64,000 bases of DNA from a virus (Duplodnaviria > Heunggongvirae > Uroviricota > Caudoviricetes). The stretch lies in IMG/VR virus record IMGVR_UViG_646311923_000012; one strand, written 5' to 3'. Position 1 is the stretch's first letter. Every line of letters starts with the position of its first letter. Positions 51,001 through 54,000 of this stretch are shown one piece after another. Position numbers: made by a program.

Positions 51001-54000
51001 CTCTTCCAGCACCTTGCGCTCTTCCGGCTCAATTTCGCCGTCTGCCTCCGCAATGGCCACCGCCACATCCAGCACATCTTCCGCTTCACGCGTATCGTGT
51101 TTCACATCCTCAATCTCGCGTAACGCGGCACGACGACCAATTTTAAAATTGGTATCCAGCTGACCGATAATAGTTGCGCTAATCGCATTAATTTCCGAGG
51201 TAAACGCAGACAACGCAGGCTGATTACGTAAGACCTGTTCGATCTTCGCTTTCTCGGATGCCTCGCATTCACCATCTGCATAGGCCACCAGGTATGCAGC
51301 GTTAATCACCGCCTGTGCCAGATCGCGTTTCTCAAACTTTTTAATTTCCGCTGCCGCTCTGCGGGTTTTCTTTTTGAAGATTCCAAACATCGTGACGTTC
51401 CTTTGGGTGGGTGAGCCAACGCCCGGGAGCGATCTGCCCACAGAGAAAGTCACACTGACCACTCCGTAAGCTCACCCCCGAAAGGCTCTGTGGTTGATAT
51501 GCGCCGGGCGTGGCGCAGATACAAAAAAGGCCCGCCGAAGCGAGCCTGGAAAATAAGTGTGGCGCGTTGTAGTGGAGTCGAACCACTGACCGATTGCTTA
51601 GAAGGCAATTGCTCTGTCCGGCTGAGCTAACAACGCAGAATACCGATAATGGACCGCCATCGGGGACCCGGCCCCGCACCAACAACCCTGTTATGGTGTC
51701 GTCTGCTCTTCCTGATAAGCTAATGGCGGTTTGTGATGGTGGCCCTTGCTGGATTTGAACCAGCGACCTGGCGATTATGAGTCGCTCGCTCTCACCACTG
51801 AGCTAAAGGGCCGAGCCAAAAAATAATAATCAGATGAAAATCAATAATCAAGCCCTTGCCTGGATACATATCTGTCTGGCGGGAAGCCATAATAGCGGTG
51901 AAATACAGAAATAAAGTAGGACCGGCTTGAATAACCACATTTTTCTGCTACAGCCTGTCCATATCCATACCGGGAACATAACATATTTACAGCAACACGC
52001 ATCCGCTCTTCCAGCAACAAGCGACTGAACATGCCCCCTTCATTTTTCAGTTTTGTCTTTAACAAACTCTCACTCATATGCAACTGTAGAGCAATCGCAC
52101 CAAGCGTCCAGCTTGCTGATATATCTGTCTGAATTATCGCCCTGACTTTGGCACTTATGCTGGATAAACATCCACTTAAAAACAATGACATCCGTTCATC
52201 TGTTTCAAACAGAGACAGGCAGGCCATCATAAGAAACATATCCGTGACCTCTCCGGAAAATCCCTGGCTGGTAATTAAAGCCGCAGCCAACGCAGGATTG
52301 TTGGGTTCCAGCAACAGGTAAAGCGGAATGTCAGTCAGACGAGTCCTCGTCAGCTTATGCTGACTTTCCAGATATTGACTTACGACGGATTCGCTTATAT
52401 CGACAATTTTAACTTTGCCATAATGCATAAGGAAAAGCTCCCTGATGCATTTGGTGGCCAGAACGACTGAGCCTGGCTTAAGTGACAACGTATCCTTTTC
52501 AAGAAAAATATTAATTGGGGAGCAAACCATGATAACTGAACAGACAACAGCCATTATAATTTTACTTTCATTAGCAATTGGTTAGCTCAATTATAGCCCC
52601 AAAAGGTAAATTATCATCAACACATAAGCAAAGGACTGACAGGTGCCGCCCCCCCCACCAGCCGCCCATTTACCACAAATAAAAAGCCTTCAGGACTGAA
52701 TGCGTCTGTAACAACCGCACTGATAGTCTGCCAGACCCGCCATAACCAGCTGGGTCAGTATTAACTGGCAGCGTTCGCGTGAAAGGTAAGTATTCTGCGC
52801 AATCTCCCCGACTGTCGCCGGTTCGGTAACGCTTAATTCATTAAACACCACTCTGGCGGTTTCTGTCATATCCTGCTGTTTTAGCATGTCTTTTTCCCTT
52901 TTCCGGTTAACGTGACATACCAATAACTCTTGTCGAAAAAGCCAGCAAGTTGAAAGACCGGTATTAGCAACCACCAGCGCGTTTAACGCCCCGTGCCGTT
53001 TTTCAGTCATAAAAAAAACCCGCAAAAAGCGGGCTCTTTCAAATGTCCATGTCTGCTATTCGCCTCGCGGTACAGCTTTGCGAAGCTTACCGGAATTGAA
53101 GCAGTTTTTACGTCAAAAAGCAATAACTTTTTTCTCTATACCAAAAGCCATAACCATTGGTTTGTACAAAATAAATTCTGCCACCTTTAGCCAATGCTCA
53201 ATGCGTCTTTCACAGGTTCTTAAACTCCATTCCGGATGTGCATCATTCAGCAATTCAGCCATTTTGCGCTTAGTCATCCCCCGCCCCACATAACGCTGAC
53301 TCAGAACATTGAGCAGCCCGGGATAACCTGCCAGTACTTCACCAATAACCCTGTCGATTATTAACGCCTCTGAATCGGTACAATGTGCCAGCCAGCTTTT
53401 TTGATTGCCGTTGATCATATCCCGCAAAAAAGCCTCAAGTTCAGGTTTGTCCAGACCCGCTTTTTTCATCCTCCGGAGCGCCTCGTTAATTGCCGTTTTT
53501 GTCAGCTTTTTAGAGGTCAGTAATTGGTTGAACATATTTCCCGTCTTACCGTCGCCAATATACGACCAACGCCCCCACATACGCAGTTTCCCCTGGATCC
53601 AGACACTTTCCAGCGTTTTCAGGCGTAAATGCTCACCGCTTTTGCCTGTAATTTCCGGGTATATCATATTTATGCTCACTCACTTTCAATTTTGTAAATC
53701 TTCACGCCCAGCCGCCCACCAGAAACGAGCTGGCCGCGCACAATATTGATTTCATCAAACTGCTCGTCGTCTATGAGAAGTCCGGCATGCGTCAGCGCAT
53801 CCAGTGGTGCTTTCAGGATATTGTCCAGGTCACGACGGCGCTTATCCGGTGGCTCTGCAATAATCTTTATCGCCAGCCTTCCGGACAGGTTTAATTTCAG
53901 CCGCTGCTGGCGAACAATAAGTGCCACATCCCGGCGATAACGCTCACCGGCTTTTGATACAAAATATGTGCTGCCACGACGTCGCCAGTAGGTGTTCACC

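Follow-up and report, generated by a model that had tools for sequence, protein, structure and literature searches.

An unannotated, non-decoding tRNA-like element of Escherichia coli prophages related by sequence to the xtpA/yahM element and probably a drifting relic

We examined a 64,000-nucleotide (nt) stretch of DNA from the Caudoviricetes record IMGVR_UViG_646311923_000012 of IMG/VR (hereafter the window), which carries an 80-nt element on its minus strand at 51650-51729. The late regulatory region of a lambdoid prophage occurs twice in the window, at 1021-5776 (copy 1) and at 50344-55113 (copy 2), with a mutual identity of 91%, and each late region has one minus-strand transfer RNA (tRNA) cluster. 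The element lies in the copy-2 cluster, in the slot of argN, the gene for tRNA-Arg(UCG). Judged by its sequence, it is not a working tRNA and cannot read a codon. We consider that it probably belongs to a known tRNA-like lineage, which also includes a sequence within xtpA of E. coli K-12, as a decaying prophage copy that does not decode, and that it persists as a drifting relic. It is a relic of a known kind and not a new element, although an unannotated, decayed and prophage-borne one. Its minus-strand sequence is CCGCCAUUAGCUUAUCAGGAAGAGCAGACGACACCAUAACAGGGUUGUUGGUGCGGGGCCGGGUCCCCGAUGGCGGUCCA, and its parts are as follows.

51650-51729, minus strand: non-decoding tRNA-like element, 80 nt, in the argN slot between tRNA-Ile2(CAU) and tRNA-Arg(UCU); no tRNA call by ARAGORN or Rfam.
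51723-51729, minus strand: 5' strand of the acceptor stem, CCGCCAU, which pairs with AUGGCGG at 51654-51660; identical to copy 1 and paired in both the minimum-energy and the centroid structures from RNAfold.
51705-51720, minus strand: D arm, with stem GCUU/GAGC (one G-U pair) and the 8-nt loop AUCAGGAA, in which GG (G18-G19) is kept.
51677-51704, minus strand: odd arm of 28 nt, AGACGACACCAUAACAGGGUUGUUGGUG, in place of the anticodon arm and variable loop (23 nt in argN); predicted hairpin.
51661-51676, minus strand: T arm, with the 5-base-pair (bp) stem CGGGG/CCCCG kept and a degenerate 6-nt loop, CCGGGU (UUCAAGU in copy 1), without U54-U55-C56 or A58.
51650-51653, minus strand: discriminator U and encoded CCA, the same as in copy 1.

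The tRNA genes of the two clusters, to which the element was compared, are these.

51737-51812, minus strand: copy-2 tRNA-Ile2(CAU), ileZ type, intact, upstream of the element; called by ARAGORN, 72.5 bits with the Rfam tRNA model, and annotated "tRNA-Ile" by PGAP at the homologous locus.
51560-51636, minus strand: copy-2 tRNA-Arg(UCU), argO type, intact, downstream of the element; called by ARAGORN, 67.3 bits with Rfam.
2412-2487, minus strand: copy-1 CAU tRNA; called by ARAGORN, 72.5 bits with Rfam.
2326-2402, minus strand: copy-1 tRNA-Arg(UCG), argN type, intact, in the equivalent slot of the neighboring tandem prophage; called by ARAGORN, 58.2 bits with Rfam.
2236-2312, minus strand: copy-1 tRNA-Arg(UCU); called by ARAGORN, 68.9 bits with Rfam.

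A preliminary description of the window had held that the three copy-1 tRNAs are canonical and that the middle gene of copy 2 is degenerate between intact neighbors. Both observations stand, since ARAGORN and Rfam recover all three tRNAs in copy 1 and only the two neighbors in copy 2. When the clusters are aligned, the flanking tRNAs are identical and the mismatch is confined to the interior of the middle gene, from the D loop to the T loop. Overall, the window allele is 72% identical to copy-1 argN. The two share the acceptor stem, D stem, T stem, discriminator U and CCA, and the position of the element, between ileZ (CAU) and argO (UCU) and downstream of the late antiterminator region, is by sequence that of an argN orthologue.

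Other expected features are missing. Compared with the Rfam tRNA model (RF00005), the element retains the 7-bp acceptor stem, the D arm with G18-G19, and the 3' CCA, but it has neither a 5-bp anticodon stem with a 7-nt loop (U33, purine at 37) nor a 7-nt T loop with U54-U55-C56 and A58. An anticodon loop of 7 nt is missing, and no U33-bearing 7-nt loop occurs in any register. The element therefore appears to be neither a tRNA nor argN proper. The preliminary description had the acceptor stem and CCA kept and the anticodon and T arms replaced, which is right except for the T arm: the T stem and the whole D arm are kept, and only the T loop is degenerate. It had also reported that the sequence could not be folded into a cloverleaf. 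RNAfold does predict a four-way structure resembling a cloverleaf, in which a long hairpin takes the anticodon-arm position; this structure is no better than those of shuffled sequences (z = -1.5). For the odd arm itself, the predicted structures are a long hairpin with a 3- to 6-nt loop or a 5-bp stem with an 11-nt loop.

At 51650-51729, ARAGORN reported no tRNA and no transfer-messenger RNA, and it called only the CAU and Arg-UCU tRNAs in copy 2. A high-scoring call with a defined anticodon, the outcome that would speak against a tRNA pseudogene, thus did not appear. A search of 51400-51950 with RF00005 (gathering score, 29 bits) gave no match over the element even at E ≤ 10, and the YrlA model, whose gathering score is 69, reached a chance-level 15.1 bits. 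The element might instead be considered a working tRNA that decodes through an expanded or unusual anticodon loop, such as a frameshift or nonsense suppressor, because the acceptor stem, the D arm with GG, the T stem, and CCA are present, and because permissive ARAGORN calls (Ser-GGA, Ser-GCU, His-GUG, and Lys-UUU) are made for relatives with the same scaffold. However, the missing U33 loop, the T loop without U54-U55-C56 and A58, and the failure of both search tools make this proposal most improbable.

We then asked what the odd arm resembles. By shuffle tests, its similarity to the anticodon arm of argN is at chance level (P = 0.89), and it shows no significant similarity to the interiors of ileZ, argO, or three other odd alleles. 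A donor of the arm was sought in the window and in 200 prophage loci, and only short chance-level matches were found. A scan of 596 Gb of genome contigs with a 16-mer from the arm gave 120 chance matches in unrelated phyla, the query being too short. The alternative offered in the preliminary description, an unusual element inserted into a tRNA scaffold, is not borne out, as the net length change relative to copy-1 argN is only +3 nt and no donor was found in phage DNA.

A sensitive blastn search of E. coli genomes with the 80-mer uncovered a second class of full-length matches, 80% identical, in 5,193 of 5,426 genomes and overlapping the start of yahM. In K-12, this element is 81 nt long and has the acceptor stem, D arm, and CCA of the window element, a canonical UUCGAGG T loop, and the arm AGACGACAACCAGGAUUGUUGUAUGGUA. 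The odd arm of the window matches the K-12 arm far better than shuffled sequences do (z = 5.9, P = 0.0002), and still does so when the first 8 identical bases are left out (P = 0.005). Both the K-12 and the prophage arms begin with AGACGACA and contain UUGUUG, to which the definition of the lineage adds ...GGU. Over the full length, the window allele and the K-12 element are 81% identical. The prophage arm resembles the chromosomal arm with a 5-nt tandem duplication, and a 7-bp hairpin in the place of the anticodon arm is predicted for all three odd-arm forms (CGACAA(C)/UUGUUG in K-12 and CGAUAAC/GUUGUUG in the prophages).

An intermediate allele connects the two. In it, the odd arm of the prophages is accompanied by a T loop of canonical type (UUCGAGU) and a D stem with GCUC. 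Seventeen IMG/VR contigs carry it, as do phage phiP27 and strain RM9088, and in RM9088 PGAP annotates it as tRNA-OTHER. This allele is 93% identical to the window allele and 87% identical to the K-12 element, with 52 of 53 scaffold positions shared with the latter. The odd arm belongs to an old and widespread lineage, of which the window allele is the further-decayed end that has lost its T loop.

Muto and colleagues (Muto, Goto, Kurita, Ushida, Soma, and Himeno, J Biochem 2022;171:459) reportedly described a tRNA-like sequence in the leaderless xtpA mRNA of E. coli K-12. A passage in the RegulonDB v12 article attributes xtpA to Muto et al. (PMC10767902). In the curated MG1655 record, the chromosomal element lies inside xtpA (b4845), a gene of 60 codons, and the start that a TTGACA-N16-CATAAT promoter predicts falls on the ATG of this gene. 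As reference for the comparison we used the K-12 locus at L327 2385-2581 (NC_000913.3, about 345218-345414). By sequence, the window element falls within the xtpA-type tRNA-like lineage but not within its leaderless-mRNA context. Homology between K-12 and the prophages is limited to the element and a leader of about 8 to 17 nt, and it ends at CCA. No remnants of ileZ or argO were found beside the K-12 element, and no arm of the chromosomal type turned up in viral contigs.

The K-12 homologue also raises the prospect that the signal comes from a coding frame or from the other strand, either as a small open reading frame (ORF) like XtpA or YahM or as an antisense small RNA (sRNA). The homologue sits inside the xtpA frame and supplies the ATG of yahM, and short ORFs cross the window element on both strands. 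However, the shared sequence comprises little beyond the element, the xtpA promoter and start are absent from the window, and a 1-nt length difference breaks the frame. Moreover, the window ORFs run through tRNA genes and look spurious, and a consensus scan found no promoter-like site on the plus strand facing the element. We regard this explanation as very unlikely. The anti-sRNAs AgvB and AsxR were also considered as identities for the element and rejected, because they sit downstream of the moron site, antisense to the late transcript and outside the tRNA cluster.

With regard to yahM (L327 2571-2816), its start codon is formed by the AUG of the element's 3' acceptor strand, and the yahN terminator hairpin lies within the yahM frame. 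Many YahM variants in databases are frameshift forms of the same DNA, and these observations raise doubt about whether yahM codes for a protein. YahM homologues were tried as a route to diverged loci and abandoned, as the seemingly distant ones were such frameshift variants.

The chromosomal copy is strictly conserved. The element is identical over 81 nt in 113 of 120 metagenome contigs. Two diverged loci, L346 and L439, carry it directly upstream of yahN and directly downstream of a type I Zorya anti-phage system, and yahM is absent; one locus is E. coli-like, and the other is E. marmotae-like (exact ZorB1 identity, with ZorC in a largely E. marmotae cluster). At both loci, the xtpA ATG reads AAG or AGG and in-frame stops follow. 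Relative to K-12, the upstream 150 nt differ at 24 to 26 positions, with the promoter hexamers conserved, whereas none of the 81 positions of the element has changed. Counting only the 57 element positions that were not fixed by the search pattern, the contrast of 0/57 with 24-26/about 150 is significant (Fisher P of about 1e-4 to 3e-4). Because the element is invariant where the xtpA frame is broken and the upstream DNA has diverged, the chromosomal copy is held to be conserved as an RNA or DNA element and not as the XtpA reading frame.

The Zorya genes at these loci (L439 2319-10646 and L346 1655-7307) lie immediately upstream of the promoter and element, where K-12 has yahL. At L439, ZorB1 was identified by exact match and ZorC by protein cluster, and ZorA and ZorD were deduced from ORF sizes. 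For L346, the one Zor ORF that was tested had no exact match, and its Zorya proteins are putative. From its surroundings, the element appears to mark the edge of a variable spot that resembles a defense island.

Two metagenome contigs provide information on how the prophage and chromosomal copies may be connected. At about 3885-4049 of L435 and about 716-895 of L448, a lambdoid late region (DUF968/RusA genes, then ileZ and spacer) is joined to a chromosomal-type element, which is followed by yahM-yahN. These junctions indicate that prophage and chromosomal copies have recombined within their shared scaffold; alternatively, they could be chimeric assemblies across a 33-nt identity. Because such phage/chromosome junctions occur in two contigs, a plausible origin of the element is that a chromosomal-type arm entered a phage argN by gene conversion, or that the transfer went the other way.

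In prophages, the element is common and usually goes unrecognized. Of 5,426 complete E. coli genomes, 1,689 (31%) carry the 80-mer at ≥90% identity and 321 carry it at ≥99%. Several serotypes carry the identical 80-mer, and near-identical prophage copies are left unannotated by PGAP. The phiP27 record annotates only ileZ and argO, leaving the element unlabelled. A private mutation or a sequencing or assembly error, to which only the G/C-rich run in the T loop might point, is already refuted by the identical 80-mer in hundreds of complete genomes of several serotypes and has next to no probability. The odd arm is seldom seen in deposited phage genomes (8 of 263 records); the other 255 match only at 60 to 80% identity, and the deposited phages listed among these are annotated as argN or tRNA-Arg. 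An IMG/VR scan anchored on the acceptor stem, and biased by that anchor, gave 121 matches, 66 with the odd arm and 52 with an Arg-UCG arm. When it was pooled with a second IMG/VR scan anchored on the flanking tRNAs, 179 ileZ-argO intervals were obtained, in whose middle slot ARAGORN called Arg-UCG in 103 cases and made no call in 72.

The middle slot varies far more than its surroundings. Across 176 prophage loci ileZ is nearly invariant (nucleotide diversity [pi], 0.0013), whereas the 77-nt Arg-UCG-type middle genes comprise 38 alleles with a pi of 0.065. Many of the middle-slot alleles carry lesions, which struck this slot independently in other prophages. The lesions include A-A mismatches in the acceptor stem, T-stem mismatches, a frameshift in the anticodon stem, and deletions of the whole anticodon arm, and T loops may be without A58 or read GUCGGGU or GGCGGGU. 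The T loops can be arranged as an allelic series, UUCAAGU > UUCGAGU > UUCGGGU > GUCGGGU > GGCGGGU > GCGGGU/CCGGGU, with additional G13 expansions. Odd-arm alleles vary in the G run of the T loop (5, 6, 7, or 13 G) and include U8>G, a G>A change in the acceptor stem, and a T-arm deletion. Seven of the 17 intermediate alleles have a G-G mismatch in the T stem. The variable G run, U8>G, and the acceptor and T-stem lesions are signs of relaxed constraint on the prophage copies.

Related loci show further rearrangements of these genes. L104 2264-2343, L046 237-314, and L130 1913-1988 share the acceptor/T scaffold but have other interiors, and ARAGORN calls them His-GUG, Ser-GCU, and Lys-UUU. At L010, a single base change yields Arg-UCU. 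The anticodon arm of the phage tRNA scaffold is unusually changeable. At six IMG/VR prophage loci, argO (tRNA-Arg UCU) is cut right after the anticodon loop, between ...CTTCTAAGCA and GCTGTGGTTGCACTCC..., with unrelated DNA beyond, which looks like the product of integration of an element at this phage tRNA gene.

Several observations weigh against the view that the window element is a drifting relic. The chromosomal sister is clearly under purifying selection, so the lineage is or was functional, whether as RNA or as DNA. In the window allele, the acceptor stem, D arm, and T stem are still perfect. Diversity among odd-arm alleles is low (pi of 0.009, compared to 0.065 for the Arg-UCG type), and these alleles are found with several kinds of flanking sequence. 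Low diversity together with varied flanks could result from clonal sampling, from recombination, or from selection.

The same observations could be explained by a functional, non-decoding tRNA-like RNA that is freed from the operon by RNase P and 3' processing. Such an RNA might work in trans: it could, for instance, be a decoy for factors that bind or cleave tRNA, or take part in a GcvB circuit like its xtpA relative. Alternatively, it might work in cis, as a processing spacer that the maturation of ileZ and argO requires. This proposal would account for the conservation of the chromosomal homologue even where the XtpA frame is destroyed, for the perfect scaffold of the window allele, and for an allele that is very common and little varied. 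It also agrees with the 7-bp hairpin predicted in the chromosomal, intermediate, and major prophage alleles. In addition, the arm pairs with the R1 seed of GcvB somewhat better than shuffled sequences do, in local duplexes of -19 to -22 kcal/mol (P of 0.01 to 0.09); whole-molecule duplexes are meaningless. However, this pairing is weak, and the ileZ arm scores about equally. The T loop needed for a tRNA-like fold is destroyed, with homopolymers of up to 13 G, and sister prophage copies have lesions in the acceptor stem, at U8, and in the T stem. The window allele has C at the G35 position, which is predicted to weaken the arm hairpin CGAUAAC/GUUGUUG of its sister alleles. Covariation is uninformative here, because transitions in the 5' strand all preserve pairing by construction. 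We therefore judge a functional RNA to be unlikely for the prophage element, though it is the alternative that deserves the most attention.

A broader version of this proposal is that the argN slot and xtpA/yahM hold one family of non-decoding tRNA-like sequences that function as RNA, with the prophage copies as expressed variants in the same pathway. This seems more doubtful still. If true, possible roles would include titrating a tRNA-binding or tRNA-cleaving factor or controlling GcvB like the prophage anti-sRNA AgvB. The Hfq-CRAC pipeline applied to enterohemorrhagic E. coli left out peaks within 100 nt of annotated features, and the position of the element is among those left out (PMC4104026).

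Our preferred explanation, a decaying relic, can be laid out as a series of events. The scaffold (acceptor stem, D arm, T stem, and CCA) would derive from a phage tRNA-Arg(UCG). Long ago, the anticodon arm was presumably replaced by a hairpin-forming 28-nt segment homologous to the xtpA/yahM arm. The likeliest route would be recombination between near-identical phage and chromosomal scaffolds, in either direction, and the T loop of the window allele would have decayed afterwards. Host tRNA-Arg(ICG) and tRNA-Arg(CCG) make Arg-UCG decoding redundant in E. coli. An intact argN, which can provide the decoding function in trans, also lies 49 kb from the element, in the tandem prophage. Because decoding is redundant and the adjacent prophage has an intact argN, loss would be cheap and the copy could drift as a relic.

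Two candidate signals flank the copy-2 cluster.

51823-51851, minus strand: promoter-like site, TTGATT-17-TATTAT, just upstream of the cluster; candidate from a consensus scan only.
51528-51547, minus strand: intrinsic-terminator-like hairpin just past tRNA-Arg(UCU), with an 8-bp stem that includes 6 G-C pairs, followed by TTTTTG.

Because these sites bracket the cluster, the element is probably co-transcribed with ileZ and argO, from the cluster promoter to the terminator after argO. The intact acceptor and T stems may still direct processing of its ends. We infer a loss of all function in the window copy from its sequence, and a residual RNA function is conceivable. The term tRNA pseudogene, which was proposed in the preliminary description, fits as far as can be read from the DNA, since the element is tRNA-derived and its decoding features are missing. 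It remains the best word for the window copy, which is not a working tRNA, but it should not be taken to mean in-place decay of the Arg-UCG gene of the neighboring prophage.

The element can also be set beside known systems. It shares its slot, its acceptor, D, and T stems, its discriminator U, and CCA with argN of Shiga toxin (Stx)-converting and other lambdoid phages (ileZ-argN-argO; names per AP012539 and phiP27), but it has an unrelated arm (P of about 0.9), no UCG anticodon, a degenerate T loop, and no tRNA call. The phiP27/RM9088-type allele, with the same arm and slot and the identity given above, keeps the UUCGAGU T loop, the GCUC D stem, and its tRNA-OTHER annotation, all of which the window allele is missing. 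The xtpA sequence of K-12 is alike in scaffold, homologous arm, and predicted hairpin. It differs in its canonical T loop, its lack of flanking tRNAs, its location within an mRNA with a near-consensus promoter, and its strict conservation, whereas the prophage element has the 5-nt arm duplication, a decayed T loop, and no XtpA frame.

Like bacterial tRNA pseudogenes, the element is recognizably tRNA-derived, non-decoding, and prophage-linked. Partial tRNA copies mark prophage attachment sites in K-12, such as pawZ, pauD, and ptwF. Such relics are 3' fragments left by integration, whereas the element is full length, lies in a phage late region, and has lost only its interior. In concept it also recalls the YrlA/Y-RNA-like mimics (RF02553), in which an acceptor/D/T module has its anticodon arm swapped for another helix. 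However, matches to YrlA reach only 15 to 20 bits against the gathering score of 69 and span the ileZ/element boundary, and the T loop of the element is not conserved.

Other features of the window place the element in its setting. The two late regions were assigned to tandemly integrated prophages on the basis of homology to strain EL361 and to O103/O26 genomes. An integrase gene is found at about 19.7-20.7 kb, and between the tandem prophages are two effector genes, espV' and tccP2. Just downstream of the espV fragment, tandem direct repeats (22066-22542; offset of 141 bp; 95 to 98% identical) are found within a gene that matches TccP2 (Tir-cytoskeleton coupling protein) of EL361. Directly upstream of each tRNA cluster is a gene for a 237-amino-acid helix-turn-helix protein with an AraC-like C terminus (51841-52554 and 2517-3230, both on the minus strand). 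A TerB-family gene follows each cluster, at the moron position downstream of a Q-like (DUF1133) gene. The early region of prophage A (about 6171-6733 and 14295-14959; homology to L310) carries ParD/ParE-type and HigB/HigA-type toxin-antitoxin pairs, and prophage B has sodC beside its tail genes at about 28.6-29.1 kb.

One database match concerns the upstream tRNA. The Rfam model "Plastid-ycf2 5UTR" (RF04354) matches ileZ in antisense, at 51739-51812 (plus strand) of the window and at L002 1429-1502 (minus strand), with 36 to 40 bits, below the gathering score. This model seems to contain the reverse complement of tRNA-Ile(CAU), which agrees with the PGAP call of the CAU tRNA as Ile rather than Met.

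Our findings bear on both the prophage and the chromosomal loci. About 31% of complete E. coli genomes share one of the commonest unannotated gaps of prophage tRNA clusters, which appears to be a decayed tRNA-like gene and could now be annotated as such. Through its homology to the prophage element, the tRNA-like sequence of xtpA gains an evident ancestor or partner among phage tRNAs, and the conservation of the chromosomal sequence where the XtpA frame is broken bears on how the xtpA locus works. This homology and the frame-independent conservation of the chromosomal element may both be new.

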